Positions 10,251 through 63,412 of a DNA stretch of 64,000 nucleotides are shown in pieces. The DNA is from an uncultured Verrucomicrobiae bacterium (lineage in GTDB: Bacteria > Verrucomicrobiota > Verrucomicrobiia > Chthoniobacterales > UBA10450): assembly GCA_963726745.1 (NCBI GenBank), contig CAVSDR010000006.1, forward strand, positions 736,001 through 800,000, in the 5' to 3' direction. The position numbers and the translations under genes are program-made. The notes below the pieces were generated by a model, which did not search any database, was not told the origin of the DNA, and saw only the letters and a program-made list of their open reading frames with translations. Position 1 is the stretch's first letter; each line of letters begins with the position of its first letter.

Positions 10251-11799
10251 TCAGTGCGCGGTTTCGGCTTTTTCTGCGCCCAGGCCGGTGTTCGCGCGGA
10301 CGGTGAGCTCGGCGAATTTCGCTTCGGCCGAAGGCTCGCGGGTGAGGATGGTCCCGAGCCAGGCGCCGAGGAAACCGAGCGGGATGCTGACGATGCCGGG
10401 GTTCTTGAGCGGGAAGAGCGGGTGCGTCTGGAAATCGGGGCTGAGGAGGATGAGGACGATGCTGGAGACGAGGCCCACGGCGAGACCGGCGACGGCGCCG
10501 GTGGTGTTGAAGCGCTTCCAGAAGATCGAGAAAATGATCACCGGCAAGTTGGCGCTCGCGGCCACGGCAAAGGCGAGGCCGACGAGGAAGGCGACGTTCA
10601 CTTTCGGCCCGAGGAGGATGGCGATGACGATCGGCGAGCGCGCCGACGACGAAGGCGGTGATGCGGGCGACGCGCACTTCCGCGCCGGGGCGGTGTTCCT
10701 TCCCGTGATGGAGCACGTTGGTAAAGAAGTCGTGCGCAAAGCTGGTGCTGGCGCTGATGGTGAGACCGGCCACGACCGCGAGGATGGTGGCAAAAGCGAC
10801 CGCGCTGATGAAGGCGAAGAAGACTTCGCCGCCGAGCATCCGCGCGAGCTCAGGCGCGGCCATGTTCGTGCCGCCATGGAGCTTCATGTGGTCCGGCCCG
10901 AGGAGGGTGGCCGCGCCGAAGCCGAAGAAGGTGGTCATGATGTAGAACAAGCCGATCAGGACCATCGCCCAGACGACACTGGTGCGGGCGGTCTTGGCAT
11001 CGGGCACGGTGTAGAAGCGGATGAGGATATGCGGCAAGCCGGCGGTGCCGAAGACGAGGGCCAGGCCTAACGAGATCTGGTCGAGCGGATTCTTGAAGAG
11101 CAGGCCGGGGGTGAGGAAATTGCGCGTCACCGGGAGGCCATCGGCGCCGGTGCAGGTGACGGCGCTCACCGCCTGGAAGAAGCTCGTTAGGCTAAAGTTG
11201 AACCGGCTCATCACGAGCACGCTCAGGAAAAGGCTGCCGCTCATGAGCAGGACCGCCTTGACGATTTGCACCCAGGTGGTCGCGAGCATCCCGCCGAAAA
11301 CCACGTAGACGACCATGAGCACGCCCACGCCGATGACCGCGACCTCGTAGCTCACCCCGGGGATAAGCTGCCTAACGAGAGTGCCGGCGCCGACCATCTG
11401 CGCGATCATGTAAAAGATCGAGACCGTGAGCGTGGAGAGCGCGGCCATGGCGCGCACCGGCCGCTCTTTCAGCCGATAGGCGAGCACGTCGGCCATGGTG
11501 TATTTGCCGGCGTTGCGCAGCGGCTCGGCCACGATGATGAGCACCGTGAGGTAGGCCACGAGGAAGCCGACGGAATACATGAAGCCGTCGTAGCCGTTGA
11601 GCGCGATCATTCCGGCGATGCCGAGAAAGCTGGCCGCGCTCATGTAATCGCCCGCGATCGCGAGGCCGTTTTGCCAGCCGGTAATCCGGCGGCCGGCGGC
11701 GAAGTAAGCGCTCGTCCCCTGGCTGCGGCGGGCGCTGAAGTAAGTGATGACCAGCGTGGCCGCGACGAAGGCCAGGAACATGAGCAGGGCGACGTTCAT
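10251..11799 (-). CDS. actP: Cation/acetate symporter (SSS family), frameshift ~10640
   Basis: [40 protein letters not shown]-terminus (AVAASANLP...NPGIVSIP) in a second frame. Confidence 0.9.
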
Positions 11800-11815
11800 A
11801 GAAGTGGTCGGCTAA

Positions 11816-12160
11816 TTACCGGCGGAAGCGCGCGAGCACGTCGGCGGCCTTGCGATCCCAGCCAGTGGCGACCATCACGTAGATCGCCGCCAGCACCCAG
11901 GCCATGAGGAATTGCGAAAGCGCAAAGGCGTAGGCCAGGTTCATCTCGCCCCAGACTTTTCGCTGCATGAAAGCGGTGTGGTAGCCGACGAGATAGGGCA
12001 GCGCGAAGTAGTAAACGAGGAAGAAGACCGTCGCCGGGACGATGAAACGCGCCTTCGCTTTAATCAGCGCCTTGAACTCCGGCGAGTCCGCGATTTTTTG
12101 CCAGTCGGCCTGGGCGCGCTGGTCCTGCGCGGAGCGTTCGTCGGCAGGTTCCATGGGCAT
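11816..12160 (-). CDS. DUF485 (YjcH-like) membrane protein
   Basis: Two TM segments, SPEFKALIK motif, directly upstream of actP. Confidence 0.85.
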   Translation of the reverse strand: MPMEPADERSAQDQRAQADWQKIADSPEFKALIKAKARFIVPATVFFLVYYFALPYLVGYHTAFMQRKVWGEMNLAYAFALSQFLMAWVLAAIYVMVATGWDRKAADVLARFRR

Positions 12161-12203
12161 CGCGCCTGCATCTAAAGCGGGCCGCTGCGCACGGAAGCAA
12201 TCT

Positions 12204-14215: not shown

Positions 14216-15366
14216 CTACGTGATCACGTAGTTGAGGCTGATCCATTGCCGCCCAGGGTTCCGGCTTGGGCCGCCGCAAGGCATGATCTCATTCGCGCGC
14301 ACTTGCAGGACGTCGACTGTTTCCGCGTCGTCTTCGGTGTCATCGCCGATCGAGCGCGTGGGCGGCACCGGCGGGACGGGCGCGACCGGCGGCACGGGCG
14401 CGATCGCGGGCAGGTCCTTTTGCTCGAGCTTTTCGTAACGCCCGCGCACTTCCGGCGGGAGCTTGGCGCGGTCTTCCTCGGTGTCGACCGGTCCGCTGAA
14501 GAGCAGACGGCCCTGCGGGTCTTTGGCCGTGAGCACTTTTTTGTCGCCCACCATCTCGAGGTTCAATTCTCCCTGCGCGTCGCTGTAGGCGATCTTCGCC
14601 TTGCCGAGATCGATCCGCGTGGTCTTGAGCGCGCCGTTATCGTTCGAAGTAATGATGCGCACTCCGCGGGCCGCGGCCCGGGCGTCGCGGGCGATCTGGC
14701 GGGCTTCGGTGCGGGCCCGGCGCGCTTCTTCCCGCGCCTGGCGCACGGTCTGGTCGATCATCCCGAAATTCATCTCCTTCATCTGGTCGCCTAACGACTC
14801 CAATTCCTGCTCCATCCCGGTCTCGAACTGGTAGCCGAAGTGGTTCCCGGGCCCGCGAAAGTTCGGGCCGCGCCGCGACCGCACCTCGCGTTTGCCGAGC
14901 TTCGCGCTCAATTTCGTCTCCGCGCCTTTGCGCAGGACGGTGAGCGTGACCGTGGCGCCTTCGCTTTGGCTACGGACTAACTTCGAGAGCTGGTTGGGCT
15001 CGGTCAGGACCTGGTCGTTGAACATCTTCAGGATGTCGTTTTGCTGGAGGCCGGCAGCGGCCGCGGGCCCATCCGGGACGACATACTCGACCACCAGGCC
15101 GAAACCTTTCGCGAGCCCGAGCTGATCCGCGACCACGCCGGGGACTTCCGAGGTTTCCACCCCGAGAAAAGTAACCGGCACTTTGGCGCGGCGATCGTCG
15201 CTCTCGTCGTCGTCCTTGTCTTTGTCTTTATCCTTGGTGCGCTCGTTAGGCACGGGCGCGACTTGCGGCGCGGCGCGGGCGCGGGTGGCGGCGGCGGGTT
15301 TTGGGCGGAGGCGGCCAGCGGCAGAAGGCTGGCGGCGGTGAGGAGAGCGAGGCAGGTGGCTTTCAT
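14216..15366 (-). CDS. Secreted PDZ-domain protein (frameshift ~15260)
   Basis: Signal peptide MKATCLALLTAASLLPLAASA; PDZ signature FLGV...GLVVEYVVPDGPAAAAGLQQNDIL. Confidence 0.8.
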
Positions 15367-20911: not shown

Positions 20912-21462
20912 ATGAATGGGCAGGAACTGGAGACGAGGAGCGAAGCGGCGAGCGAGCCGGCTGACCTTTCGGCGCAGCTCGCCGAGCTTCACGAAATGAG
21001 CTACGGCTGGGCGTTGAGTTGCTGTTCGCCAATGCCGCCGACGCGGAGGATATTTTGCAGACGTTTACCAGAAAATTTTGCAGGGCCGGGCAGTTTCGAC
21101 GGCCGCTCCACGCTCAAGACCTGGCTCTTCGCCGTGATCCGCAGAACGGCGGCCGAGAACGGCGGCGGCGCTATTTCCGGCTGCTCCGATTGGGCGGCTA
21201 TGCGCGCGAACACGAAGACGATTTCGAGCCGGCAGAACGCGGCGCCGGCCTGGAGAACGCCGAGCGCCTGGGAATTTTCGCCAAGCCTTGGCGAAACTGC
21301 CGCGCCGCCAACAGGAGGTGCTCCATCTGGTTTTTTACCAGGACCTGACGATCGAGTCCGCCGCGCAGGCGATGGGCGTCTCGTTAGGCTCGGCCGCACG
21401 CACTACGAACGCGGAAAACGCCGGCTGGGCGAACGGCTGCGCACCTCGGAGCAATTTCATGA
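20912..21462 (+). CDS. ECF sigma factor (frameshifted)
   Basis: ADAEDILQ, FDGRSTLKTWLFAVIRRTA, LPRRQQEVLHLVFYQDLTIESAAQAMGVSLGS, RTHYERGK spread over frames. Confidence 0.8.
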
Positions 21463-22417: not shown

Positions 22418-24721
22418 CTAAAAGCGCATCTTCACGCCACCGTAGTAATTCCGGCGCGACGCGGGGACGATGCCTTCGTCGCGCACTTCGGCCCAGAAAT
22501 CTTCGTCGAAGAGATTGTTGATCCCGGCGAAGACTCCGAAGCGCTCCTCCCGGCCGAAGTTATACTCCGCGGTCAGGTCCCAGACGGTGTGCGCCGGGAT
22601 CTCGCGTTGGAAGGTGTTGTTCGCGTCGGCAAAACTCTGGTCGACATACGTCCCGATGAGGCCGGCCTTGATCGTTTCGTGGAAGTGATAAACGCCGCCG
22701 ACCTTAACCAGGTAATCCGGCGCGTAGCTCGGGGTGAAGCCGCTGTTTGGCCCAGAGGTAAACTCGGCATCGAGCAGGGTGATGTTGCCGTAGAAGTTGA
22801 GCTTGCCGAAAGGCGATTCGCTCCCGCCATGGAGCACCGCGAGCAGGTCGACTTCGGCTGCGGCCTCGATCCCGCGGAAGCGCGCATCGCCCACGTTCCC
22901 GGTGGAGGCGGCGCCATTAGCCAGCGAGATGTCGCCCACCTGGTCCTCGAAATTGAAGAAGAATCCGCTCACGTCGAAACTCAGGTAAGGCAAAGGCTTC
23001 CCGCGCAGGCCGAGCTCAAACTGAAGCGAGCGCCCTTCTTTCAGGTCGCCATTGACCACGCCGTTCGCGCTGGTCGGCACGAGCTCGCCATAGGTCCGCG
23101 GGCGGTAAGCCTGCGCCACTGTCCCGTAAACTTCGAGGCGCGGCGGGCCTTGCGGGGTCATCACCGGGACGATGTTTTTGCCATCGCTGCCGGCGGTGGT
23201 GGGCGCGACGCCTTCGAGGAGGACGTAGTTTGCGCCGAGGCCGAAGAGCGGGATGAAATTGAAGTCCGAGCTCGAGTTCAAGGTCGCGCGGCTGATGTTG
23301 AACTCCTCCTCCACCCCTTGGTCGAGGAACTCCAGCCGCATCCCTGGGGTGATCGAAAGCCGCCCGAACTTGAAGCGGTTCTCGGCGAAGATCGCGCCGT
23401 CCCAGGTCTCGCCCGTGTTCAGGTTGCGCAGTTGCCCGTCGCTCGCGCCTGGAGTGGCGCCGCGTTTGTCCGTCCGGTCCTGGACCGCGTGGTAGAAATA
23501 CAAGCCGCCGGCAAAAGTCGAGGTGTCGCCGCCTAACGAGTAATCATGCCGCAGGCGCAGCTCCGCGCCCTCGGTCCAATCCTCGCGATCCTGGATCGAG
23601 TTCGTGGCCGCCGCGCCGCCGCTCGGCCGCGTGCCGAATCCGCCGCCGCGCTGGCGCTGGCTATAGCGCGAGAGGTAGCCGCCCCAAGCCTTCACCTCGA
23701 GACGCGTCTGCTCGCCCAGGAGCTTCTGGTATTCCAGGGTCGCGAAGTAGCGCTCCAGGCGGAAGAGATCGAAGAAGCGCGTGCTCGCGTTCCGATCGTC
23801 CTCGTAGTAGCGGGAGTTCGCCGGGTTCACCGCTTCGCGCCGACGCAAGCCGCCGGGTTCGCCGTGCTCTTCGTAGTAGGCGTCGAGCGTCAGGATAAAG
23901 CGGCTGGAATCGTCCACGTCCAGGACCAGCTTCACGCTCCCGGCATTCAAATCGTAGCCGCCGTTCGCCTCGCGAAAACCTTCGCGCTCGCGGTGATCGT
24001 AGTAGGCGTAGTAGCTCGCCGCGCCCAGCTTCCCGCTCAGCGAAGTGAAATTTTGGAAGAGCTCGTCGGAGCCGTAGAGATTCTTGGTGAAGAACTCAAA
24101 CGGCACATCGCGCCGCGGCATCTTGCTGATGAAATTGATCGCGCCGCCGGGTTGCGGACCGAACTGCAGCGAGGCCCCCGCGCGCAGGAACTCGATCCGC
24201 TCGACCGCGTCCAGGATCGGCGTGTAATGCGCTTCCGGGAAGCCGAACTGCTCGTTCTTGATCGAGACGCCGTCCTTCAAAATTTGGGTGAACTCACTGC
24301 GCTGCGAGTCGAGCCCGCGGTAGCCGAAATTGATGATCGGCGACGACGGCTCCTCGCTCACGAGCAGACCGGGCGTGGTCGCGAGCACCTCGCGGTAATT
24401 GTTGTTCGCCACGCTCGGGAATTCCTCCGGCTTCACGAACGAGCTCTTCTTGCCGGAGTTAATCCGCGTCCCTTCCACTTCCGGCAGCGCGGGATATTCC
24501 ACCGGCTCGACTTCGAAGCCGCGCACGACCACGTGCTCCAGGTCGACCGTGCGGCCGCTCACCTGCGCGAGCGTGATCTCGCTGTCTGTTTGCGGAAGGC
24601 GCTCACCCTGGGCGTTAAACGACGGTCGCGCTTCGGTCTCGCCAAGCACTGCGGTGATCGCACAAAAAGGCGTGGCGGCGACGAGCGTGAGGGGGAGAAC
24701 CGAGGAAAACAACGAGCGCAT
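22418..24721 (-). CDS. TonB-dependent receptor (FecA-like)
   Basis: Plug motif ERIEFLRAGASLQFGPQPGGAINF; NNLFDED; C-terminal YYGGVKMRF. Confidence 0.92.
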   Translation of the reverse strand: MRSLFSSVLPLTLVAATPFCAITAVLGETEARPSFNAQGERLPQTDSEITLAQVSGRTVDLEHVVVRGFEVEPVEYPALPEVEGTRINSGKKSSFVKPEEFPSVANNNYREVLATTPGLLVSEEPSSPIINFGYRGLDSQRSEFTQILKDGVSIKNEQFGFPEAHYTPILDAVERIEFLRAGASLQFGPQPGGAINFISKMPRRDVPFEFFTKNLYGSDELFQNFTSLSGKLGAASYYAYYDHREREGFREANGGYDLNAGSVKLVLDVDDSSRFILTLDAYYEEHGEPGGLRRREAVNPANSRYYEDDRNASTRFFDLFRLERYFATLEYQKLLGEQTRLEVKAWGGYLSRYSQRQRGGGFGTRPSGGAAATNSIQDREDWTEGAELRLRHDYSLGGDTSTFAGGLYFYHAVQDRTDKRGATPGASDGQLRNLNTGETWDGAIFAENRFKFGRLSITPGMRLEFLDQGVEEEFNISRATLNSSSDFNFIPLFGLGANYVLLEGVAPTTAGSDGKNIVPVMTPQGPPRLEVYGTVAQAYRPRTYGELVPTSANGVVNGDLKEGRSLQFELGLRGKPLPYLSFDVSGFFFNFEDQVGDISLANGAASTGNVGDARFRGIEAAAEVDLLAVLHGGSESPFGKLNFYGNITLLDAEFTSGPNSGFTPSYAPDYLVKVGGVYHFHETIKAGLIGTYVDQSFADANNTFQREIPAHTVWDLTAEYNFGREERFGVFAGINNLFDEDFWAEVRDEGIVPASRRNYYGGVKMRF

Positions 24722-26426: not shown

Positions 26427-26433
26427 TGGAGAG

Positions 26434-44483: not shown

Positions 44484-44504
44484 CCGGCGACTTCGCCAGC
44501 GGCG

Positions 44505-47680: not shown

Positions 47681-47739
47681 GCTTTCCTTTATCGCGGAGC
47701 CCGGCGGTTTTCCAAGGGAGAATGCACCGGGGAGCGCGC

Positions 47740-48324: not shown

Positions 48325-48339
48325 GCGAGGTCCTTTCGG

Positions 48340-50337: not shown

Positions 50338-51133
50338 GGATAGCTCTTAACATGCGCAGGTGCTTCGGCAAATTCTTTAGCGGGATCTGGTTAGGCCCGT
50401 CGCTCATCGCCTTCGCCGGATTCTCATGCACCTCCATGAAAACGCCGTCGCAACCCGCGGCCACCGCCGCGCGCGCCAGCACCGGCGCGAGCGCGCCATC
50501 CCCGCCGGTCGTCTCACCCGCCCCGCCGGGCCGCTGGACCGAATGGGTCGCATCAAAAATCACGCGATACCCGAGTTCGCGCATCCAATAAAGCGAGCGC
50601 ATGTCGGCGACCAGATTGTTGTAGCCGAAAGTCGTCCCGCGCTCGATGAAGCAGAACTTCGTGCAACCGAAGGCGGTGAGCTTGTCGGCTATATTCTTCA
50701 CGTCCCACGGCGCGAGGAACTGGCCCTTCTTCACGTTCACCACTCGACCGGTCGCCGCCGCTGCTTCCAGGAGATCAGTTTGCCGGCAAAGAAACGCCGG
50801 GATCTGCAGGACATCGACCGCCGCGCCGGCGATCTCCGCTTCCTCCGCGGTGTGCACATCGGTCGTCACCGGCACCCCCAGTTCCGCGCCGATCTCCGCC
50901 AGGAGCGCGCAACCCTCCTCCACTCCCGGCCCGCGATACGAGCGCACCGAGGTGCGGTTCGCCTTGTCATACGACGCCTTGAAAATAAACGGCACGCCCT
51001 CGCCCTGGCAGATCTCCGCGATCTTCCGCGCCATCCGCCAGGCGAACTTCTCCGATTCAAGCACGCACGGCCCGAGGATGAACGCCGGCTCCTTCCCGCC
51101 GATGGAGACCTTGCCGACTTTGAGCGCTTTCAC
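50321..51133 (-). CDS. kdsA: KDO8P synthase
   Basis: FKASYDKANRTS, QIPAFLCRQTD, KKGQFL, DATHSVQ. Confidence 0.96.
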   Translation of the reverse strand: MKALKVGKVSIGGKEPAFILGPCVLESEKFAWRMARKIAEICQGEGVPFIFKASYDKANRTSVRSYRGPGVEEGCALLAEIGAELGVPVTTDVHTAEEAEIAGAAVDVLQIPAFLCRQTDLLEAAAATGRVVNVKKGQFLAPWDVKNIADKLTAFGCTKFCFIERGTTFGYNNLVADMRSLYWMRELGYRVIFDATHSVQRPGGAGETTGGDGALAPVLARAAVAAGCDGVFMEVHENPAKAMSDGPNQIPLKNLPKHLRMLRAIHAAVS

Positions 51134-51148
51134 TTCCGCGACGATGGC

Positions 51149-51847
51149 TCAGCTTCGGAAATTAGCCAGCCGCGCGAGGTCGAGGCGGCCGGTGTAAATC
51201 GCCATCCCGAGGGCGGCGTGGACGTTCATCGCGAGGAGGGCGTCGATCTCTTCGTAGGTCGTGATGCCGCCGGCGGCGGTCAGTTCGAGCGTGGTTTGCG
51301 CGCGCAGGCTGCGGAACCACTCGAGGTCGGTCCCCTGCATCATCCCTTCCTTGTCCACGTAGGTGCAAAGGACCGCGCCGCAGTAGGGCTCGAGCTGGCG
51401 GATGATCTCGCCCGCCGCGATGCCTAACGACTCTTGCCAGCCCTTGATCACAATCCGGCCATCGCGCGAATCGAGCGCGAGGATGATCGCTTCGCGTCCG
51501 AGCTTGTCGGCTAATTCCGCGAGGAACTCGTGGTTCAAGCCATCGCCACGAAAGGCCGCCGTGCCGACGATGACCCGTTCCGCGCCGGCGGCGCGAAGCT
51601 GCTCCGCTTTCGCGACCGAACGCACGCCGCCGCCCACCCAGACGCGATGCTTCGCCGCGAGGCGCTCGACGATCGCTTCGTTCGAGCCGCGCCCGAGCGC
51701 GGCGTCGAGATCGATCACCTGGATGACCGGAAAGGCGGCGAACTTCTCCAGCATCACCTCCGGCGCTTCGCCTTCGAGCGCTTTCTCGCGCCCCTGGATG
51801 AGCTGGACGACCGCGCCATCCATCAAATCGATGCAGGGGATAATCAT
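51149..51847 (-). CDS. hisA: ProFAR isomerase
   Basis: [33 protein letters not shown]; last gene of the his operon. Confidence 0.88.
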
Positions 51848-52612
51848 GGTGTCGTTAGGCGAACGGGGATGCCGGCAGCGGCGAGGTGTTTCTTGAGATC
51901 GTTCACCGTGTAGGTGCCGAAGTGGAAGATGGAGGCCGCGAGCGCCGCGGCCGCTTCGCCGTCCTCGAAGACGCGCACGAAGTCGTCCGGCTGGCCCGCG
52001 CCGCCGGATGCGATTACCGGGATGTTGACCGCGCGGGCGACCGCGCGAGTGAGCGCGCAATTGAAGCCGGTCTGGACGCCGTCGGTGTCCATCGAAGTGA
52101 GGAGAATTTCGCCCGCGCCGAGCTGCTCCGCGCGCCGCGCCCAATCAACCGCATCGAGCCCTTCGTCCACGCGTCCGCCTTTCGTGAAAACATTCCAGCG
52201 CCCCGTCGCCCACGCTCTTGGCATCGATCGCGAGCACGACCGCCTGCGCGCCGAACGCTTCGCTCAATTCATGCAGCAACTCCGGCCGCCGCACCGCCGC
52301 GGTGTTCACGCTCACCTTGTCCGCGCCCGCGAGCAGCACGGTGCGCGCATCTTCAACCGAGCGCACGCCGCCGCCGACAGTGAGCGGGACGAAAACCTCG
52401 CGGGCCGCGCGCGCGACCACATCGATCAAGGTGTCGCGCGCATCGCTCGAGGCGGTGATGTCGAGAAAGACGATCTCGTCGGCTGATTGCTCGTTATACC
52501 GCTGCGCCAGCTCGACCGGATCGCCCGCGTCGCGCAGCCCGACGAAGTTGACGCCTTTGACCACGCGGCCGTCGCGCAGGTCGAGGCAGGGAATGATGCG
52601 TTTCGCGAGCAT
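51844..52612 (-). CDS. hisF: IGP synthase cyclase subunit (frameshift ~52200)
   Basis: [44 protein letters not shown]. Confidence 0.92.
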
Positions 52613-52614
52613 GC

Positions 52615-53206
52615 TCAAAGGGCGGCGAAACGCTGGATGATCTCGAGCCCGAACGGCCCCGATTTTTCCGGATGAAATTGCACGCCGAAACAGTTGCCGC
52701 GCTCGACCGCGGCGCTGAACGGTCGCGAGTAGGCGCAGATCGCCGCGGCTTCATCAACCACCGGCACGTAAAAGCTGTGCGCGAAATAAACATGCCCGCC
52801 GTTGCCCGCGAAGAGGCGCGAATCGCTCGCGGGCGTGATCGTGTTCCAGCCCATGTGCGGCACGCGTTCGTCGTCCGGGAAACGCTCGACGCGCCCGCGA
52901 AAAACGCCCAAGCCCTTCCGCCTCCGGCGCTTCCGCGCTCCCCTCAAACAGCGCCTGCATGCCGAGGCAAACGCCGAGAAAAAGCGCGTCGTCCGCAATC
53001 CGTTCGCGCAGTGGCTCGCGCAGTTGCAGCTCATCGAGCGCGCGCATCATTTGCCCGAAATGCCCGACACCCGGGAGCACGATCTTGCGTGCGCCGCGCG
53101 CAGCTTCTCCGCGTCGCGCACGAGCTCAAATTTCGCGCCGACCGTTTGCGAAGGCGTTCTGCACCGACTGCAGATTGCCGGCGCCGTAATCGACGATCCC
53201 GATCAC
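52615..53206 (-). CDS. hisH: IGP synthase glutaminase subunit (frameshifted)
   Basis: [35 protein letters not shown]. Confidence 0.92.
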
Positions 53207-53790
53207 AGCAGTCCCTTGGTCGACGGCAGCTGCGTTTTCAGGCGCTCATCGGTCGAGCAGGCGTAGCGCAGCGCGCGCGCGAAGCACTTGAAGATGGCCT
53301 CGATCTTGTGATGGCTCGAGCGGCCATACATCACCTTCAGATGCACGTTCGCCTTCGCGTGCTGGGCGAAGCCTTCGAAGAAATCATGCAGCAACTCGAG
53401 CTCGAGCCCGCCGAGCTCGCGCACCTTCACTTTTGGATCGTAAGCGAGCGCGACGCGCCCGCCGAGATCGATCGCCGCGACCGCGAGCGTCTCGTCCATC
53501 GGCTGGACGAAATAGCCGGCGCGATTGATCCCGACGCGTTTCCCGAGCGCCTTCGCGAAAAGCTGGCCGAGGACAATCCCCACATCTTCGACCGTGTGAT
53601 GTTGATCGACGTGCAAGTCGCCGCGCGCTTTCAGCGTGAGGTCGAAGGCGCCATGCCGCGTGAAGAGCTCAAGCATGTGATCGAGAAAACCGATCCCGGT
53701 CGCGATTTCGTATTTGCCGGTGCCGTCGATCACCAGCCGACCGCTGATCTGGGTCTCGGTGGTGTCGCGTTTAATCGTCGCCTTTCTCAT
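53203..53790 (-). CDS. hisB: Imidazoleglycerol-phosphate dehydratase
   Basis: [28 protein letters not shown]. Confidence 0.95.
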
Positions 53791-54437
53791 AGGACTCGCT
53801 CCAGTTCGTTCACGCTCTCGACCACCGCCTCGGCGCCTTCGCGAAGCAGCAGGTCCGGCGTCGGCGCGATCCCGAGGAAGCGCACGCCGGCGGCCTTCGC
53901 GCTGCGGGCGTCGTCGGGGTTGTCGCCCACGTAGATGAGCGTGCTGCCCGGGTGCGCGGCCGCGATCAGGCGCAAGCCATCGGGCGCCGGCTTTGGATTG
54001 GGAATGTCCATGTCGCCTACGATCGTCGCCCACGAGATCTGCGGGGCGAAACGCTGGAGCGTGAGGTCGATCTCCGCGCGCGGACGACCGGAGAAAATCG
54101 CGAGCGCATACCGCGCGCTCAGCCGCTCGAGCAAACCGTCGCGCGGAATCCAGGTCTCGCGCGTGATCAGCCCGTCGCCGTTCTCGCCGAGGAAAAGCTT
54201 TTGGAAGACAGCCACGACTTCGTCGTAGGGCACATCGCGGCCGGAAGTTTTGCGGACCAATTTCTGCGCAAGCAGCCAATCGTTATTCCAGCCGCCGGCG
54301 TTTTTGTATTCCGCGATCAACTCGTTAGGCGCGGCGGCTCCGGTGAAATGCCGCACCGTCTCGGCGATCGCCGCGAGGTAAGAGCCGCCGACTTCCGCGA
54401 GCACGCCGTCCATGTCGAAAACGAGCACGTCTTTCAT
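53787..54437 (-). CDS. HAD-family hydrolase (candidate histidinol-phosphatase)
   Basis: FDMDGV, KPAP, VGDNPDD; translationally coupled within the his operon. Confidence 0.85.
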
Positions 54438-55490
54438 CGCGCGCGCTCCAGTTCGGCGATGAAACGCTCGGCCTGCGCCGGCGTCCCCACGGTGACCCGC
54501 GCGCAGCCGGCGATCTCATGGCTGCGATCGCGAATGAGCACGCCCGCGTCGCGAAGTTGCTGGCAAATCTCGCCGCACGCGCTCGCCCAATTGCAGGAGA
54601 ACGAAGTTGCCCGCGCTGCGGTAGAACGGCACGCCGAGCCGCTCGAGTTCGGTGTAGATCCATTCGCGCGCCGTCAGCACTTCGCGCACGTAGTTCGCCA
54701 CGTAATCGGGATCATCGACCGCGGCGCGCGCGGCCACGGCAGCAAGCGAGTTCACGCTATAGGGCGACTGCGCTTTGCGAGCGAAGGCGATGTTGCGCGC
54801 GTCGGAGAAGAGACAGCCGAAGCGCATCGCGGCCATGCCGTAGGCTTTCGAGAAGGTGCGGCTGACAAAGAGATTTGCGTAGCGCTCGATCAACGGCAGC
54901 GCGGTGATCCCGCAAAACTCGAAGTAGGCTTCGTCGATCAAGACGGCTGCGTTCGGCGCGCGCTGGAGGATCTGTTCGATCGTCGCCAGATCCGCCGCGG
55001 TGCCGGTCGGATTGTTCGGGTTCGAGATCAAAATCGCACGCGTCTCCGACGTGATCGCCCCCAGCAATTCCTCGAGCGGAAAAGCGAGTGTCCCGGCGCG
55101 GTAATCGACTGTCGTGATCCGCGCGCCGGCGAGCTCGGCGTAGAAGCGATACATCGCGTAGGAGGGCTGGAGGATGATCACTTCCGCACCCGCTTCGACG
55201 AAGGTGTTCATCAACACCTGGATCGCTTCGTCGGTGCCGTTGCTGAAAAGCATCTGCTCCTCCGCGACGCCGAAGTGCTCCGCCAGCCGGGCGCGGGCCT
55301 CGACATATTCCGGATAAATCGCGAGCCGCTCGGCGCTGATCTTTTCGCGCAAAACTTCCGCGACGCGCGGCGAGCAACCTTCGGTGTTCTCGTTGAAATC
55401 AAGCCGCAGTTTGCCTTCGCGGCCTCCTGTCGGCGGCGAATAAGCCGCCATCTTTTGCACGGCGGCGCGTGGTTGCAAGGGAGCGCTCAT
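54434..55490 (-). CDS. hisC: Histidinol-phosphate aminotransferase (frameshift ~54580)
   Basis: LDFNEN, NPNNPTG, DEAYFEF, RTFSKAYG. Confidence 0.93.
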
Positions 55491-56732
55491 GAGAGGCGGG
55501 CCTCCACCGAACGCGCGTGCGCTTCCAAACCTTCCGCGCGTGCCAAGGTCGTCACCGCGGGCGCGATCTGGCGGAGCGCGTCGGGCGAAAGTTTTTGCGT
55601 CGAAATGATCTTCACGAAATCGAGCACCGACAGCCCGCCGCGCAGCCGGGCCACGCCGCTGGTCGGCAAGGTGTGGTTCGGGCCGGTCGCGTAATCGCCG
55701 GCCGCTTCCGGGCTGCAGGCGCCGAGGAAAACGCTCCCGGCATGCTGCACTTCCGCGAGCAGATTTTCGTCGTGCAGGCTGAGGTGTTCGGGCGCGAAGC
55801 GGTTGCTCCAGGCCATGGCCGCGGCGCTGGAATCGAAAAGGATGATTGCGCTGTTTCGCGCGATCGCTTCGCGCGCGACGGCAGCGGTCGTTAGGCCATC
55901 GAGCTGGCGCTCGATCTCGGCGCTCACCTTTTCCGCGAGGGCGCGGGAAGTAGTCAGCAGGATGGCGCCGGCATCGACGTCGTGTTCCGCCTGCGCGAGC
56001 AGGTCGGCGGCGATCGCGCGCGCGTCGCCTTCGTTCGCGATGATCACGATCTCGGTCGGGCCGGCGACGAAGTCGATGCCGACTTCGCCCGCGAGCAGTT
56101 TCTTCGCGGCGGCGACGTAGATGTTACCGGGGCCGACGATGCGGTCGGCGCGCGGGATGGTTTCGGTTCCGAAACGCGAAAGCCGCGATCGCTTGCGCGC
56201 CGCCAAGCAGGAAGACGCGATTGTCACCGAGCAATTCCGGCTGCGCCGAAAATGTCGGCGGAAGGTTTCGGGGTCGTTAGGCAAATGTTCCGCACGCCCG
56301 CGACCTGCGCGGGAATGACGGTCATGAGGACGGTGGAAACGAGCGGGTAACGACCGGCCGGGATGTAAGCCGCGATGGTGTCGAGCGGCCGGACGATCTG
56401 GCCGACGCGCAGCCCCGGCGAAAGTTCGTGCTCGAAGTCGCGCGGCTTTTGCAGCTCGGCAAAGGCGCGGATGTTAGCCGACGCGATCTCGATCGCTTCG
56501 CGCAAAGCCGGCGACAACTTCGCCATCGCGTCGGCTATTTCGCTCTCGCTTACGAGAGATGACTGCGCGCTCGAAGCCGTCGAACTTCCGCGCGTATTCC
56601 CGCAGCGCCTCGTCGCCGCGCGTGCGCACCGCTTCGATGATCGGCCTAACGACCGCTTCCGCTTCGTCGAAGCGGGCGGTTTTGCGCGCGAGGAGCTCCG
56701 CGCTCTCGCTCTCGGTGAAGGATGCGGATCAC
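55487..56732 (-). CDS. hisD: Histidinol dehydrogenase (frameshifted)
   Basis: [44 protein letters not shown]. Confidence 0.93.
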
Positions 56733-57598
56733 AGGACGATCTTGTTGAGCGGATATTCCACGATGCCGGTGGCGCCGGCTTCCTTCAGGCGCGGGATGAT
56801 CGCGCGCACGGTGGCTTCATCGAGCACGGTGTTCATCGCCACCCAGCTCTCGTCGCTCAATTGCGAGATGGTCGGCTTTTGCAGCGCGGGCAGGATCGCG
56901 AGCACGTCGGCTAAATTCTCGCGCGGCGCGTTCAGCATCAGGCCGACTTTGCCGAGCGCGTTGATCGCGCCTTCGAGCAGCATCTTCACGTCGTCGAGCT
57001 TGCGGCGTTTCCAGTCGTCGCCGAGCGCGGCCTTGTTCGCGATCAACTGCGTATTCGACTCGAGCACGGTTTCGACGATGCGGAGATTGTTCGCGCGGAG
57101 CGACGAGCCGGTCTCGGTCACTTCCACGATCGCGTCGGCCAGGACCGGCGGCTTCACTTCCGTCGCGCCCCAGCTGAACTCGACCTTCGCGGTCACCTGG
57201 TTGCGCGCGAGGTAACGCTTGGTCGTTTCGACCAGCTCGGTGGCGATGATTTTGCCTTCCAGATCGGCCGCGGAATTGATCTCCGAATTCGCCGGCACGG
57301 CGAGGACCCAGCGGACTTTGCCGAAGCTTTGCTTGGCGTAGATCAGGTCGGCGATCGGTTGCACATCGGCCGCGCTTTCCGCGATCCAATCGAGCCCGGT
57401 GAGGCCGGCATCGAGGATGCCGTCTTCGACGTAGCGCGCCATTTCCTGCGCGCGGATGAGCATGCACTCGATCTCCGGGTCGTCGATCGCCGGAAAATAG
57501 GAGCGCGTGCTGACGGTGATGTTCCAGCCGGCCTTGCGGAAGAGCTCGATCGTGGCGCGTTCCAGGCTGCCTTTGGGGATGCCGAGTTTGAGTTTCAT
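56729..57598 (-). CDS. hisG: ATP phosphoribosyltransferase (long form)
   Basis: [25 protein letters not shown]-terminal regulatory domain. Confidence 0.95.
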
Positions 57599-57979
57599 GA
57601 TTGGGCGTAAACGGCCTTCGGATCGTAGGTCTGCGGCTCGCTCGTCACCCATTCTTCGTTTTGCCAGCCGCCGAAAGAAGCAACTGGCGTAGCCTTCGTG
57701 GCAGACGCCGGGCCCGAGCGCTTCCACTTTCACGAGGATCGCGTCCGCATCGCAATCGGTGCTGATTTCCCTAACGAGCAGTTTGTGCCCCGAGCTCTCG
57801 CCTTTAACCCAAAGCTTCTGGCGCGAGCGGCTGAAGAAGGTGACCTCGCCGGTCGCGACGGTGCGCCGGAACGCCTCCTCGTTCATGAAGCCGAGCATGA
57901 GGACGCGCCCGCTGGCGTGATCCTGCACGATCGCAGGCAGGAGGCCGTCGAGTTTTTGGAAGTCGAGTTGTGTGGGCAT
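57595..57979 (-). CDS. hisI: Phosphoribosyl-AMP cyclohydrolase (frameshift ~57660)
   Basis: [29 protein letters not shown]. Confidence 0.92.
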
Positions 57980-58014
57980 AAAAAAAGCCCGCGAAACCAA
58001 TCGGTGACGCGGGC
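57980..58014 (-). terminator. Attenuator terminator of the his operon
   Basis: GCCCGCG...CGCGGGC stem plus T7 directly before the hisI ATG. Confidence 0.8.
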
Positions 58015-58050
58015 GGTGAGCTGGAAGTTTTTAGGTTCGAGCGCGCGCGG

Positions 58051-58098
58051 TCACACCGTGCCGTGATGGCTGTGGCGGTGATGGAAGTGCGCGCGCAT
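58051..58098 (-). CDS. hisL: His operon leader peptide MRAHFHHRHSHHGTV
   Basis: 15-codon ORF with 6 His codons immediately upstream of the terminator. Confidence 0.85.
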   Translation of the reverse strand: MRAHFHHRHSHHGTV

Positions 58099-58163
58099 TG
58101 AGGAGCCGGACTATAGCACGCTTTTGCGGCGCGCAAGGTTCGCCCCGCGCGGATGACCGCCAG

Positions 58164-58697
58164 CTAATCGCCCATCCAGGCGAGCTCGAAGCTTTTGCCG
58201 TTCCAAAAGACGAGCGCGGACGAACTCTCCGGCCGGACCATCATGATGGCGTCGCCTTTCGGTTTGGTCTCGCCCAGACTGCTTTTGTCATTCCTGGCGA
58301 CGACATACCAGGCCGGCCCGGGATACTCTTCCTTGATGTCTTTCGAAAGGAGACGCGGCGCGCCTTTGGCGAAGAAGATCGCATCGGCTTCTTTGGCCCG
58401 GTTGCTTTTGGAGACGAGCCGCAGGGCGTAATCCATCTGCCCGTCGCCATCGAAGTCACCCGCCAGGTAGAACGGATTGACGGCGCGATAGCCGATCGCG
58501 TATCCGGCGTTGAACTCACTCGCACGGAATCTCTCCACGACCTGGTAAGGCAGCGAAGCCAGGGCAACCGTCTCGGCACTGGTCGTCCCGTCCGCGGCTG
58601 GCACGGGCGGCGCCTGCAGCCAAAGCAGCGCAGCCGTGGCCAAGGCGGCGCCGACCCAATGCGGACGCTTCCTTTCCGGAACAGCCAGCAATCTCAC
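58164..58697 (-). CDS. Secreted hypothetical protein (GDFDGDG motif)
   Basis: Signal-like N-terminus; AGDFDGDGQMDYA. Confidence 0.7.
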   Translation of the reverse strand: MRLLAVPERKRPHWVGAALATAALLWLQAPPVPAADGTTSAETVALASLPYQVVERFRASEFNAGYAIGYRAVNPFYLAGDFDGDGQMDYALRLVSKSNRAKEADAIFFAKGAPRLLSKDIKEEYPGPAWYVVARNDKSSLGETKPKGDAIMMVRPESSSALVFWNGKSFELAWMGD

Positions 58698-60322
58698 TGG
58701 CCGTCGTCGTTTGGATTGGGCTGCGGCCGCGGTTGCGGAGGGCGTTGCTGTGGCTGCTGCGGCTGTGGTTGCTGGTTGTTTGGCGCAGGTTCGCCGAGCG
58801 CGCGGAAGAAGTTTCCGATGGCCTCGCCGGCCTTGCGGTTTTTCTCTTCCTGGGCCTTCCGCTTGGCCGCGGCCTGGCGATTTTGTTGGTCGATCGCTTT
58901 CTTCTCCGCCAACGCCTTTTCCTTCTGCTTCTTCAAGTCGGCGATCTTTTTGTCGGCGGCGGCTTTGGCTTTCTTGTCCGCCTCTTCTTTCTTCTGCTGG
59001 GCCAATTCTTTCGCCTTCGTGCCTTTCTCCTGCTCGAGCCGGGCGACCAGGGCGACCCGCGCATCCTTGGCGGCCGCCTTGTATTTCTCAGCCAGCTGTT
59101 TGTTTTGCGCCGCTTGCGCCGCGGCCTCGTTCTTGGCCTTGGCGATGGCCTCTTCCTTCCACGGAGGTGGGGTAGGCAGCGACTTCGGAGCCGGCGGCGG
59201 CGTGGTCTTTGGCAGAGGTTTCGTGACCGCGACGGTGCAGAAATGGTCCAGGTAGGTGACCGCTACCCAGCCCGACGCATCGACATACGCCCACGTATCC
59301 GGAACTCGTGGCGCCAGCACGCCGAGACTGTTCGCCTCCTGCACCAGCAGCGCGGTTCCCGGTGCTTCCCAAGCCGCCAAGTCGATCCACACTTCCACCG
59401 GCGGTGCGAAGACTGCGCCCGCGGGCGTAAGCTGCGCGATCCCGAGCACGCCGACGCCCCACCCACTGGTCACGCTTCCTTTCACCGAGGTGATCGGCGG
59501 ATGGTGGTAAAAGAAGGGCGTGCTCCCGGGACCAGACGCTGAGCCGGGAGGAATGACAATCGCACCCCGGCCCAGCCCGAGAGGATAGACGATGCCGCCC
59601 TGCTGGTTGAGGATCGCGGTCGAGAGCGCCAGCAGAAAGTCTGAGACTTTCTCGGTGATGGGCGCTTTGATCTTGGTCGCGGCGGCGGTGGCTTTGGTGC
59701 GTTCCAATTCGGCTTTCGCCCGGGCGGCCTCGGCCTTGGCTACTTCGATCGCCAACTGGTTCGCTTCCGCTTCCGCTTTCGCGACGTCTGCTTCAGTGGC
59801 CGTCGGCGCAGCGGCCGCCTTCTGGCTTTCTTCGGCATCCGCCTTGGCCTTCTCGACAATCTCTTCGGCCTTCTCCGCCTCGCCTTTGGCGCTGACGTAG
59901 CTTTGCTGCGCCGCGGCAGCGGCTTTGGCGGCTTCGTCGGCCTCCGCCTGGGCTTTCGCTACTTCGGCTTCGGCCTTCGCGACGTCGGCCGCGGTTTGCG
60001 CCTGCGCACTTGCGGCGCTTTGAGCCTCGGCTGCAGCTCGGGCCTGGGACTCCGCAGCGCTTTTCGCATCCGCCGCCGCACGCGCGGCCGCAGCCTCAGA
60101 TTGAGCGACCGCATTGTCGCCCTGCGCCTTCGTCCGGGCGTCGGCCTCGGCCTTCAACCTGGCATTTTCCGCCCGTAAAGCGTCAGCATCCGCGCTGGAT
60201 TGTTGAGTTTGCGGACACCCAGTCATCGCGAGGCCAAGGATGAGGAGCGCAATGCAGCTCGCGGCCTTGAGCCATGGGCCACGGATCCCGCGCCCGACTG
60301 AATTTGGAGAGAGAAAGATCAT
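58694..60322 (-). CDS. Putative lipoprotein with Ala/Lys-rich coiled coils around a ZU5-like domain
   Basis: Lipobox-like AMTG-C; QLTPAGAVFAPPVEVWI...LDHFCTVAV. Confidence 0.75.
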   Translation of the reverse strand: MIFLSPNSVGRGIRGPWLKAASCIALLILGLAMTGCPQTQQSSADADALRAENARLKAEADARTKAQGDNAVAQSEAAAARAAADAKSAAESQARAAAEAQSAASAQAQTAADVAKAEAEVAKAQAEADEAAKAAAAAQQSYVSAKGEAEKAEEIVEKAKADAEESQKAAAAPTATEADVAKAEAEANQLAIEVAKAEAARAKAELERTKATAAATKIKAPITEKVSDFLLALSTAILNQQGGIVYPLGLGRGAIVIPPGSASGPGSTPFFYHHPPITSVKGSVTSGWGVGVLGIAQLTPAGAVFAPPVEVWIDLAAWEAPGTALLVQEANSLGVLAPRVPDTWAYVDASGWVAVTYLDHFCTVAVTKPLPKTTPPPAPKSLPTPPPWKEEAIAKAKNEAAAQAAQNKQLAEKYKAAAKDARVALVARLEQEKGTKAKELAQQKKEEADKKAKAAADKKIADLKKQKEKALAEKKAIDQQNRQAAAKRKAQEEKNRKAGEAIGNFFRALGEPAPNNQQPQPQQPQQRPPQPRPQPNPNDDGQ

Positions 60323-60575
60323 GATTTTATGAGGTTGAGTTCGATGGAGGGACTCCAGTGCGGACGACTCTAGGGGAAGACGCTCGAAAGCGTCTATTAG
60401 CCGAAAGTGCTAAATCGCCGCCGCGAAAATACCGCCGAAAATCGTCGAAACAGCGCGCTGGATGGCGGAGTCGATGGTTGAGTGGCGTGGGGAACCCCCA
60501 CGACGGCGTCCTCCCTCGACGAGCTCCATATTTTATGTAGAAAAACAAAAACGGCTTCGCCAGACTGGCCCTTGC

Positions 60576-61850
60576 ATGGAGACGAAAAGGGCGCGGCGGG
60601 CAGCGACTCAGAGCGTGGTCTCGCCACAGGCGAAAGACTTTTCCGGGCCGAACGTGAAGGCGTTGCTGAAGCTGGCCGCTGCGCGCAACGCCGGCGAATT
60701 CTGGAATTCCGCACAAGCTCTCCTGACGCAGGTCGCGCCTTCCTCGATCCGCTGGCTCTGCATTCGGCCCACGAGCATGAGCACAGCCTTGGTGCTCCTA
60801 AGGGAAACGCAGACCGGCGCGCAGAGAAGCAGCGATGAAGCCGGGAGGTCAGGGAGAGACGACGCGGCGCTGTTAAAGGAACTCTTCGCGCGGCACCCAG
60901 CGATTCTCCACTTTCAGCGACGCGTGGGAGTGCCGCTGGTTTACCTGCAGCCGGATCAATTTTCAGCGGCCGGCCAGGACGGGGTCCGCTGGCCTCATCT
61001 GAACCAGGCGCGTTTCGGGGTGGCGCTCGCTTTTTGGAACCGGAAGGAAATCCGCGGGGTGCTGCTTCTCCATCGGATGGAGGAAGAAGGCGATTTTTCC
61101 CCGGCGGAGATCAAGGCTCTGCGACGGTTGCATCCGCATCTCGAGACGGCGCTCCGCCGCATCCTCGCGGCCCGTGCGCATGAGGCGCAGAAACACGTTC
61201 TTGCCGGGATGCTCAAGCCACTCCCGGTGGCCGTAGTGGTGTGCGATTGGCGCTTGCAGATCATCTGCGAAAGCGCCGAAGGCCTCAACGCGCGCACGCA
61301 CTGGGAGATCGGGAAGGAGCGCGCGCGGGCGCTCAATCGATCCGCGCGCCGTGCGCTCCCGCCGGACCTGGCGGCCTATTGCCGCGGGCGGATCGCCGCG
61401 TGGGAGGAGGCAGGCACAGCCGCCCGCGCCAAGATGGAAAAAGAGGAAAAGAAGCTCGTTCTCCCAGAGGCGCCGGAGTTGGAGGTCACCGTAAGCATGT
61501 TTCGGCAAAGTCATTTCCCGCTGGTCCCGCCATTTTTTCTCCTTCGTTTCAATAAGGTGGCGGACGGTGCGACCGCGGCGCCCCTCATGAGCGCTGCTCG
61601 CTTTTCCGGGCTGGCCCTGCTCTCCGCCTCGGAGCGGGAAGTGGCGCATCTGGTTGTGCAAGGTCAGGGCAACAACGCCATCTCCCAGCTGCTCGGAAAG
61701 AGCGTGCACACCGTCAAGGCGCAGATGCAGTCGATCTTCAAGAAGCTTGAGGTGACCAGCCGTTCGAAATTAACCGCGAAGCTGACGCACGGAAGCCTCT
61801 GCTGCTTGTTGACCTCTTACTTCGACCTGCTGGAGACCGCGTTTCTTTAA
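60576..61850 (+). CDS. LuxR-family HTH regulator
   Basis: LSASEREVAHLVVQGQGNNAISQLLGKSVHTVKAQMQSIFKKLEVTSR; start codon uncertain. Confidence 0.85.
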   Translation: METKRARRAATQSVVSPQAKDFSGPNVKALLKLAAARNAGEFWNSAQALLTQVAPSSIRWLCIRPTSMSTALVLLRETQTGAQRSSDEAGRSGRDDAALLKELFARHPAILHFQRRVGVPLVYLQPDQFSAAGQDGVRWPHLNQARFGVALAFWNRKEIRGVLLLHRMEEEGDFSPAEIKALRRLHPHLETALRRILAARAHEAQKHVLAGMLKPLPVAVVVCDWRLQIICESAEGLNARTHWEIGKERARALNRSARRALPPDLAAYCRGRIAAWEEAGTAARAKMEKEEKKLVLPEAPELEVTVSMFRQSHFPLVPPFFLLRFNKVADGATAAPLMSAARFSGLALLSASEREVAHLVVQGQGNNAISQLLGKSVHTVKAQMQSIFKKLEVTSRSKLTAKLTHGSLCCLLTSYFDLLETAFL

Positions 61851-62570
61851 GCCGTGGGCCCACTTCTGCGGCGCCAAAGCAGATCGAAAAGCGCGAAGGG
61901 CGCATAGAGCACGGCGAAGAAAACCAGCGCGAGGCCGTGCATCTGCAACAGGTAGAGCGGCCACGAATCGGAGAGGTAACTAAGAAGCGAAAAGGCTTCC
62001 GGTTTGTGCAGCAGAAAGCCGTAGTTCACGCCGGTGAGCAGGTCGATGCTGAGCGCGCTGACAAAATAAACTTCCGACCAGAGGAAAGCGCGCACCACCG
62101 GAGATCAGGTGAGGCCGGAGGCGGCGGGTGAGCATTAAGAAAATCACGCCGACGATGATTCCCGAGTGCGAAATGAAAAAGGCAAAGAAGCGCGGGTCGG
62201 GGAAGCCGAACGCGAGATTCGGCGTAAGCACGGCCTGCAAAGTGCCGCCTATTCCCCAGAAATAGGCGACCTCAAACCAGCGCCGCCAACCGGTCCACAT
62301 TGCGACCAGGATCACGACCATGGCCCAGTCGCACATTTGCATCGGGAGCATTTGCTCCCAGGTCATGAGCGTGCGGCTGCGGATGAAAACGAGATAGCCG
62401 ACGTAATTACCTACAAGGACAAGCGCGAGCCCAAGCACAATGGCGCGCTCGAGCAGGCGCGAGCCCGTTTGCCGAACGAACGCGGCGAGGGCAAAGGGAA
62501 GCGCAAGCGTGAGGAGGATGACCGCGAGATGCTCCGCGCTCCAGGCGTGAAATTCCGGCGCCGCCTCCAT
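61847..62570 (-). CDS. TIGR02206/YwaF-like membrane protein (frameshift ~62100)
   Basis: LPMQMCD, GTLQAVLTP, FFISHSG, NYGFLLHKP. Confidence 0.8.
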
Positions 62571-62578
62571 CTCGTCGG

Positions 62579-63412
62579 CTAACGAATGACCCAGAGATTG
62601 CACGGAATCACGTCGGTGATCCAGGCGATCTGCGGCGGCAGTTCCGACGTCGGCGTTTTCCTTTCCGCGGGGACGACCAGGAGATCGGCCTCGACCGACT
62701 GGACAAAATCGGACGCGGCAAAACCGGTGTTGCCGCGAATGCACCGGACCTCGAGCGGAATGGCGCTTTTGCCGGCGACTTGCTCGACGAATTCCTCCAG
62801 CGCGGCCTCCTCCTCCTCGAGGCTGCGGGCGTGTTGCTGGCCTTTGGGGACCTTGGTGCGGCGCTTCGCGCGGGCCTCATCGAAAGTGGTGTAGATGCGA
62901 ATCGCGTAGAGTTTTTCGCAGCCCTCCAGTTCGGCCAGATGGAGGGTGCGGCGGAGCGCATCCGCCGTGTGCGCGGAATATTCCGGGACGAAAAACACCA
63001 TGCAGCGAAGCGGCTTCGGATCGCGCTCCGGCCGGGTGAAAAGCAAGACCGAGCACGGCGCCTCGCGCACCAGGGTGCGAGCGACATTCCCGAGAAAAGA
63101 CCGGAGGACGACCTGCTTCTCGAGCGCGCCGGCGATGATCAATTCAACCTCGTTCGCCCGCAACGCTTCCAGGATCGCCTCCGCTGGCGCACCTTGGTGG
63201 TAGTGAATCGAGGTGTCGTTAGGCAGCCCCATGGCCCGGAGCGCGCTGGCAAAACGCTCGCTGGTCTGCGCGGTCTTGCGGCCCACGAAAACAAGGTCCA
63301 GCCGGGCGTTGAGTCGGTCGCGCACCCGCTTCGCTTCCGCCAGCACCTGCTCGAAGCGCGGAGAGAAAGCGCTGGCCACGGCGATGCGCTGGTAGGGCGG
63401 CGGGAGGGTCAT
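62579..63412 (-). CDS. Universal stress protein (tandem USP)
   Basis: YQRIAVA, FLGNVARTLVREAPCSVL. Confidence 0.85.
   Translation of the reverse strand: MTLPPPYQRIAVASAFSPRFEQVLAEAKRVRDRLNARLDLVFVGRKTAQTSERFASALRAMGLPNDTSIHYHQGAPAEAILEALRANEVELIIAGALEKQVVLRSFLGNVARTLVREAPCSVLLFTRPERDPKPLRCMVFFVPEYSAHTADALRRTLHLAELEGCEKLYAIRIYTTFDEARAKRRTKVPKGQQHARSLEEEEAALEEFVEQVAGKSAIPLEVRCIRGNTGFAASDFVQSVEADLLVVPAERKTPTSELPPQIAWITDVIPCNLWVIR

Follow-up and report, generated by a model that had tools for sequence, protein, structure and literature searches.

Uptake sequences are tags by which Haemophilus and Neisseria recognize and take in DNA of their own kind. The described cases come from two families of proteobacteria, both host-associated: the uptake signal sequence (USS) of Pasteurellaceae and the DNA uptake sequence (DUS) of Neisseriaceae. 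Both occur at a density of about 1 per kb (PMC7811141, PMC2397512) and leave over-represented tripeptides in the encoded proteins (PMC2817400). In Haemophilus influenzae, 17% of the USS have a neighboring USS no more than 30 bp away (PMC7811141), and the dialects of DUS keep a common CTG core (PMC3630211). This article describes a dispersed nine-base word, M1 (GCCTAACGA), found in a 64,000-nt stretch of DNA (here called the window; GCA_963726745.1, contig CAVSDR010000006.1, positions 736,001 to 800,000) from an uncultured Verrucomicrobiae bacterium, where it also forms the crossover end of an integron cassette array. An earlier note on this DNA had remarked on the word inside core genes and had proposed an undescribed uptake, nucleoid, repair or methylation signal. 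The over-representation of M1 is confirmed as real and family-specific and, judged by analogy with the known systems, a modest balance of the evidence favors M1 as an uptake-signal-like tag arising from biased DNA uptake and recombination.

Enrichment and behavior of M1

The window contains 30 copies of M1 against 0.30 expected, and the maximum among 100 dinucleotide shuffles was 2, in keeping with the earlier estimate of less than one copy by chance. All 23 coordinates given for copies outside the integron array proved to be exact matches, and seven further copies lie within the array, at 573, 2362, 3473, 4674, 5766, 8771 and 9281. Across the source genome (3.41 Mb in 7 contigs), there are 1,312 copies (681 on the plus and 631 on the minus strand), corresponding to 385 per Mb overall and 324–531 per Mb on each contig, whereas Markov models of orders 2–4 predict 16–84 genome-wide. 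M1 is the second commonest 9-mer of the genome, behind GCGCGCGCG, and its extended consensus is GSCTAACGAGTSSW.

The enrichment survives nulls that preserve coding content. Genes were called with our own dicodon model (3,182 calls, 2,810 of them high-scoring), and the 2,810 genes hold 957 copies, compared with 11.3 under a synonymous-codon shuffle (n = 10, maximum 17) and 75.2 in simulations from a dicodon model fitted to those genes (n = 5, maximum 90). CTAA by itself is merely 1.2- to 1.3-fold up, and a short TTAG/CTAA bias therefore fails to explain M1. Basecalling does not account for it either, as the word ranks first among 8-mers in loci (e.g., L004, L039, L061, and L066) on contigs that bear names of what we take to be the short-read assembler type. 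One-off variants are plentiful at the edges of the word (443 at position 2 and 202 at position 1) and scarce in its core (9 at the C of AAC). The synonymous TTA-to-TTG variant has 12 copies only, and M1 is thus without sign of decay in the source genome.

M1 is read in all four stop-free frames, and frames that would place a stop codon are avoided. The exact codons TCG TTA GGC encode 445 of the 750 SLG tripeptides, and the proteome carries a tripeptide excess of 1.65-fold for SLG and 2.56-fold for PNE, with reversed controls at 1.05 and 1.01. The density outside called genes is about 2-fold that inside. M1 is itself 56% guanine plus cytosine (GC), yet its density climbs with the GC content of the surrounding window, from 0 per 10 kb below 56% GC up to 7.1 above 67%, which, with GC as a proxy, points to foreign DNA without M1. 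Local GC at fourfold sites around M1 is the same as at controls. A low-GC region of the polysaccharide-synthesis type (G000:C7:49000-82000, G000 being the source genome) is almost devoid of M1 and of the second word, M2, described below.

The spacing and turnover of the copies are also distinctive. Only 33 M1-M1 pairs lie less than 200 bp apart against 101 expected, with recovery by 300 bp; the same short-range dip is absent for seven control words, and M1 is more evenly spaced than random. Permissive sites encoding SLG or PN[ED] hold M1 in 659 of 1,130 cases, and this occupancy falls to 7 of 35 where the nearest other M1 is less than 100 bp away, stands at 64–65% at 300–2,000 bp and is 50% beyond 2 kb (p = 5e-9 for less than 200 bp versus 200–2,000 bp), independently of codon bias. 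Two species that are 94% identical have 69 of 102 M1 sites in common over 160 kb aligned; of the 33 differences, 26 come down to one base. Divergence between them is higher near M1 (0.066–0.096 within 500 bp versus 0.053–0.056 beyond), and site retention is 78–84%, compared with 62% for control 9-mers. At an orthologous SLG site in ptsI, the M1 core is present in 11 of the 13 genomes of high density and in none of the 33 of low density.

Among the listed copies outside the array, 22 of 23 fall in genes called by our script; the exception, 56644..56652 (+), lies in the frameshifted his region. An actP-like gene on the minus strand contains 11065..11073 (+; TCG TTA GGC, SLG), 11184..11192 (-; LT frame) and 11370..11378 (+; LVR frame). 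The SLG frame is also used on the plus strand at 14789..14797 (a hybrid site that M2 fits too), 23531..23539, 26382..26390, 27238..27246 (gatB-like), 29195..29203 (aroC-like; again a hybrid with M2), 30001..30009, 38218..38226 and 51422..51430 (hisA-like), and on the minus strand in rpsA at 34000..34008. Minus-strand copies in the PNE frame lie at 15243..15251, 21381..21389 (in a weakly called gene), 26134..26142 and 54322..54330, those in the PND frame at 31431..31439 and 63216..63224 (usp-like; a further hybrid with M2), and those in the LT frame at 51852..51860 (hisF-like piece) and 56274..56282 (hisD-like piece). A hisD-like piece also carries 55888..55896 (-; GLT), and the LVR frame recurs at 28604..28612 (+). 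The codon usage previously quoted for rpsA (SLG, 34000), actP (LVR, 11370), hisD (GLT, 55888) and usp (PND, 63216) is correct, and the near-matches reported at 25345, 57769 and 62577 (span 25345..62585) are one-off variants of M1. Two parts of the window, 4800-7700 with garbled, GC-repeat-like cassette sequence and 50300-58000 with several frameshifted his genes, suggest long-read consensus errors.

Distribution of M1 and changes of word

The named loci that come closest bear the titles Chthoniobacterales, Spartobacteria, Verrucomicrobia and Candidatus (Ca.) Udaeobacter, the last being very common soil bacteria, and the source genome nests among them in a quick-version PtsI tree, the root of which is weak. 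All 36 same-family genomes are enriched in M1 (138–2,435 copies, each at least twice the reversed-word control; four of these rows are unpublished genomes, on which no claim rests), and none of 24 genomes of the order's other families is; the latter have 1–35 copies, always under the control. The suggestion of a lineage-specific signal was therefore well founded. A set of 49 family genomes reached via named loci, which may overlap the 36 and is not summed with them, spans a 40-fold range of density from 19 to 788 per Mb. By clade, densities are 365–788 per Mb (10 genomes), 102–604 (the clade of the source genome), 26–118 (8 genomes) and 19–208 (24 genomes, including Ca. Udaeobacter). Remnant copies persist at orthologous sites in low-density genomes, as at a speA site where 8 of 31 such genomes retain a remnant M1, which suggests that M1 is ancestral in the family. 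Outside the family, one 20-kb stretch each of two genomes (G040 and G043) yielded no comparable word, and one such stretch of a third (G042) gave overlapping words of apparently one repeat; the clustered GGGAACGCC-family words at its locus L386 are probably local repeats rather than dispersed tags. Over-represented words of the AACCGTGAA family in G104 (L064) were likewise rejected as a tag, being clustered rather than dispersed and probably local repeats.

In one clade, a third word, AAGATCGACA, stands in the place of M1. Within the 24-genome Udaeobacter clade, it has 503–1,588 copies in 9 genomes, 62–326 in 14 and 21 in the remaining member (G077), which is the most M1-rich of the clade; elsewhere, it has 10–50 copies in the tree's other 26 family genomes and 0–19 in 9 other-family genomes. 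In a further genome (G068; loci L157-L160 and L009), GCCTGACGA is as frequent as M1, at 20 each per 102 kb, a parity that may reflect a relaxed or shifting dialect.

The source genome carries, besides M1, about 2,100 copies of the second word, M2 (SAWnDYGYYGnCTAAWT), with which M1 has GnCTAA in common. A mixture model over all 6,288 CTAA sites assigns approximately 1,868 to M1 only, 1,737 to M2, 362 to both arms and 2,322 to background. The form AWNNNGYYGGCTAA has 729 copies versus 25 of its reversed control, and 546 copies in genes versus 9.8 and 17.0 under the synonymous-codon and dicodon nulls. None of 60 relatives carries M2 (AWNNNGYYGGCTAA has 0–48 copies in each). It is real because stop-codon frames are avoided and because the site at 22917 is reproduced with 0 differences inside a public 151-letter contig (one site, one study). 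The tripeptides of M2 are not enriched (1.00–1.12), and M2 is therefore probably younger than M1. It has no polarity (354 versus 351, p = 0.94), and its self-avoidance is weaker than that of M1 (p = 0.04).

The earlier note had overlooked M2. A pattern search of the window (A[ATG]nnnGYYGnCTAA) gives 30 copies of M2 on either strand between 44 and 63940, starting at 44, 8047, 11802, 12595, 14781, 18363, 22917, 26732, 26798, 26879, 26897, 29187, 29367, 30320, 32534, 34642, 37921, 40452, 41075, 44480, 44587, 46361, 49153, 50195, 51501, 56474, 56901, 62569, 63219 and 63927. At 19 places in the genome (e.g., C2:133116 and C6:722768), two facing M2-like sites overlap by one base as CTAA-W-TTAG.

Proposed biased uptake and alternative drives

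If M1 is such a tag, a sequence-specific step of natural transformation, most likely DNA binding at the type IV pilus, would favor fragments with GCCTAACGA(G). Favored fragments would recombine more, so that point mutations toward M1 would spread, even via otherwise rare codons, up to the point at which the drive is offset by mutation and by constraint on the proteins. Where a short fragment already has one copy, a further copy would bring no gain, which would produce self-avoidance within about 300 bp. The specificity would have changed within the family, with M1 ancestral, one clade now on AAGATCGACA and M2 added in the source genome. Uptake as the favored step, the short fragments, the order of the word changes and a receptor are what we infer; any step that favors word-bearing incoming homologous DNA yields such a pattern, and uptake is the sole demonstrated example at such density.

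The comparison with uptake sequences drawn in the earlier note, like its lineage-specific signal, fits every genomic test run (density, frames, spacing, and nulls). At 385 per Mb here and up to 788 per Mb in relatives, M1 is in the density range of USS and DUS. It resembles USS in its 9-base non-palindromic core, mostly genic location, enriched tripeptides, scarcity in new DNA and weak flanks (PMC2817400, PMC7811141), and the spaced left arm of M2 may recall the USS layout of core plus tract. USS differ in sequence and phylum, and M1 differs from them in having no close inverted pairs, in avoiding itself below 300 bp and in sharing its genome with another word. With DUS, the family has in common lineage variants, a conserved word amid more divergent flanks and a core-genome location (PMC3630211, PMC2397512); a further difference lies in ComP, the DUS receptor, for which no match rose over the cut-off among the proteins scanned here (see below). 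The cyanobacterial word HIP1 is likewise highly iterated, fairly evenly spaced and tied to transformation (PMC13756078), but it is palindromic with known cognate methylases, whereas the three words described here are non-palindromic.

The source genome is equipped for competence. The com and pilin genes to which the earlier note directed attention are present as comEC (847 aa), dprA, three pilB-like genes, pilT and 19 prepilin-motif matches, along with genes that have comM- and comF-like signatures. As a determinant of M1, the presence of comEC is non-discriminating (46 of 49 family genomes have it), and the ComEC domains of the source genome have no unusual divergence. ComN is reportedly predicted, beside ComP, as a cognate receptor pilin for uptake words. 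Several receptor candidates were considered and set aside. A protein that joins a staphylococcal-nuclease-like domain to a ComEA-type helix-hairpin-helix (HhH) domain and has an N-terminal hydrophobic segment is encoded at L221:1489-2535, L222:724-1677 and L225:796-1674; the gene looks frameshifted in the source genome. Its HhH family turned up in 29 of the 36 rows for the family, low-density genomes among them, and was not found in several of high density. Three minor-pilin operons (L175:4628-6761, L179:4579-7134, and L182:14423-16937) are highly variable and patchy in the family, one being Verru_Chthon cassette-like and two having DUF7305 PilX-like genes. The C6 copy of the latter is patchy (22 of 58). 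The C3 copy first looked like a conserved M1-linked clade; direct search disagreed, failing to find it in nine high-density genomes (G013, G024, G031, G033, G063, G064, G068, G109, and G110) and finding it in four of low density (G002, G003, G012, and G088), and it was rejected as a necessary receptor. An all-against-all comparison of pilins from five genomes revealed no basic minor pilin common to those of high density.

Several observations weigh against biased uptake. The receptor candidates examined fail to track M1, and genomes poor in M1 have comEC and pilins too. The ComP family stayed under its cut-off in a scan of 15 proteins (best score 20.4 bits versus 27.3), and in the two sets of 31 and 15 proteins that were scanned, a part of the proteome, no ComP or PpdA-type match rose over the threshold. 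Inverted terminator pairs were not found, as only 6 M1-M1 pairs lie within 50 bp against 26 expected; USS of H. influenzae pair closely, and DUS have terminator pairs and dialects with a common core, whereas M1 pairs are avoided and AAGATCGACA has no core in common with M1. There is no mutual avoidance between M1 and M2 (199 pairs less than 200 bp apart versus 176 expected), and the occupancy by each is independent of the distance to the other word (p = 0.59 for M1 versus M2 distance, and p = 0.30), a misfit with a single uptake gate at which either word suffices; two drives seem to be running in parallel in the source genome. Lastly, an uptake tag alone leaves the match of M1 to the integron crossover end unexplained. 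With terminator pairing and a known receptor not found, M1 is not assigned here as a member of DUS or USS.

The main rival, an unlikely one, is a cytoplasmic sequence-specific factor that acts after or without uptake, protecting word-bearing DNA from a nuclease or licensing it, with the word as a self mark, or steering mismatch repair toward it, a role suggested for HIP1. If there were two factors of this kind, each with a word of its own to spread, M1 and M2 would be expected neither to saturate nor to avoid each other; replacement by unrelated words and the lack of terminator pairs would follow as well. A candidate is an orphan SPPY-type DNA methyltransferase (L298:5250-6043; G000:C3:981317-982012), conserved at approximately 70% identity in all five genomes of a search that covered high-density genomes. 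This enzyme, which usually adjoins thiG or an OB/HD-type gene and in the source genome has an M1 site and an M2 site just upstream, resembles GTAC-specific enzymes. Genome-wide, GTAC (661 sites) and CTAG (961) are strongly depleted, and the methyltransferase probably targets GTAC rather than any of the words. The N6 methyltransferases are patchy (4 of 5 genomes), the words are non-palindromic and 9–16 bases long, and repair bias alone fails to predict the 300-bp self-avoidance that biased uptake of short fragments would produce.

A signal of chromosome organization or replication under direct selection, such as Chi, an FtsK-orienting polar sequence (KOPS), a matS/SlmA/Noc-type site or the site of a nucleoid protein, is very unlikely. 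M1 is, like Chi and KOPS, non-palindromic, frame-independent and over-represented, and its retention against turnover and its even spacing would suit a structural site. Chi and KOPS have strong strand polarity along replichores; M1 has none, with 414 copies on the G-rich strand versus 437 (p = 0.45), a result that lends no support to the Chi/KOPS possibility raised in the earlier note. M2 is without polarity too, M1 shows no regional confinement in 50-kb windows, its enrichment is 60- to 80-fold, and both the 40-fold density range and the replacement of the word among close relatives speak against a structural role.

The integron sites and the significance of the words

The integron part of the window comprises an attI site at 9275..9335 (-), which ends in TCTCG↓TTAGGC (= M1) and has no intI adjoining, and a cassette array at 573..8779 (-). 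Compared by column, the attI site is 91% identical to the attI sites that adjoin intact intI genes in G034 and G021. The attC crossover (R') ends of the array are perfect M1 at 573, 2362, 3473, 4674, 5766 and 8771; the remaining ends deviate outside the CTAACGA core, and 13 ends fit the strict attC pattern. The attC crossover ends of the family read (C/G)TCG↓TTAGGC, as do those of four genomes from two other families (G054, G040, G055, and G041). The strict pattern of this attC type occurs in 2 of 201 phylum-wide genomes, both in the family of the source genome. M1 and the attI/attC ends are identical over 10 bases, and a chance match of 9–10 bases is in our estimate most improbable, even allowing for other features that could have been matched. 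Of the link to the integron sites suggested earlier, the identity of the sequences stands; the observations on IntI below lend no support to a common active mechanism.

M1 copies as products or targets of the integron integrase, that is, as secondary (attG-type) sites or as scars of insertion and excision, are a largely refuted possibility with very little probability left to it. Such an origin would account for the letter-for-letter identity with the crossover end and for solitary or degenerate attC-like elements outside the main array (C3:633252, C4:24533, and C4:25436). Dispersed copies are, unlike attI and attC, lone half-sites without hairpin, cassette or dependence on IntI, and they come and go by single substitution in intact genes, where insertion would presumably be selected against. 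Intact intI was not found in the source genome, which has XerC/XerD and a broken intI remnant only (G000:C2:58469-58894, followed by an attC fragment). IntI scores over the cut-off in 17 of 37 family genomes, and its presence is unrelated to M1 density (median 158 versus 147 per Mb, p = 0.64), a null weakened by the frequent loss of integrons from metagenome-assembled genomes. IntI is also present in 12 of 24 other-family genomes without dispersed M1, the four other-family genomes with the same attC ends lack dispersed M1, and neither M2 nor AAGATCGACA is a crossover end. A bias in codons or short words is refuted, and so is an artefact of assembly, despite the frameshifts and garbled cassette stretches of this assembly, given the codon and dicodon nulls, the avoidance of stop-codon frames, the presence of M1 in many independent assemblies and the exact match of an M2 site in a public contig.

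Other integron-related features were noted in the family. The source genome has another, short cassette array with an attI-like site of its own, again lacking intI (G000:C4:149607-151065), and both arrays end next to the same unannotated family of proteins of 170–230 aa (window 71-220; L186:13530-14048; G000:C4:151250-151950), the L186 copy of which has no NCBIfam or Pfam match. In G157, 16 attC-type ends are spread across 7 contigs rather than in one array. Paired dif-like half-sites were rejected as a reading of M1: CTAA-N6-TTAG occurs just 5 times, two of which are the attI sites, and our own pattern found no dif.

Two histories come into question: the integron site was the source of the recognized sequence, or this family passed cassettes on to its neighbors. 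The attC end persists in the clade where AAGATCGACA dominates, so the current drive is not what maintains it. Transformation is able to bring cassettes to chromosomal integrons (PMC12614218). In a speculative and rather doubtful scenario, an ancestral receptor would have been tuned to the integron crossover end for the import of cassettes from soil DNA; carry-along fragments would have let the drive write M1 genome-wide, and later receptors would have brought new words, so that the source genome would now have two words acting independently of each other. This origin is compatible with the 10-base identity with attI and attC, the attC ends of sister families that lack the word and the persistence of the ends after the change of word. 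If true, it would explain how an uptake sequence began and would tie competence directly to the capture of cassettes.

The exact words were not found in the literature searched, and nothing on such a word in Verrucomicrobiota came up there; supplementary k-mer tables could list one. Potential uses of the words could include binning of soil metagenomes, flagging of foreign DNA and guiding transformation once these bacteria are cultured. If M1 is indeed an uptake tag, the family would provide a third independent case of such signals, and self-biased DNA exchange would be shaping the genomes and proteomes of soil bacteria. The family also offers a set of natural experiments, with a 40-fold range of density, complete replacement of one word by another, an old and a young word in one genome and a possible origin from an integron site, through which the rise, switching and decay of such signals become testable.

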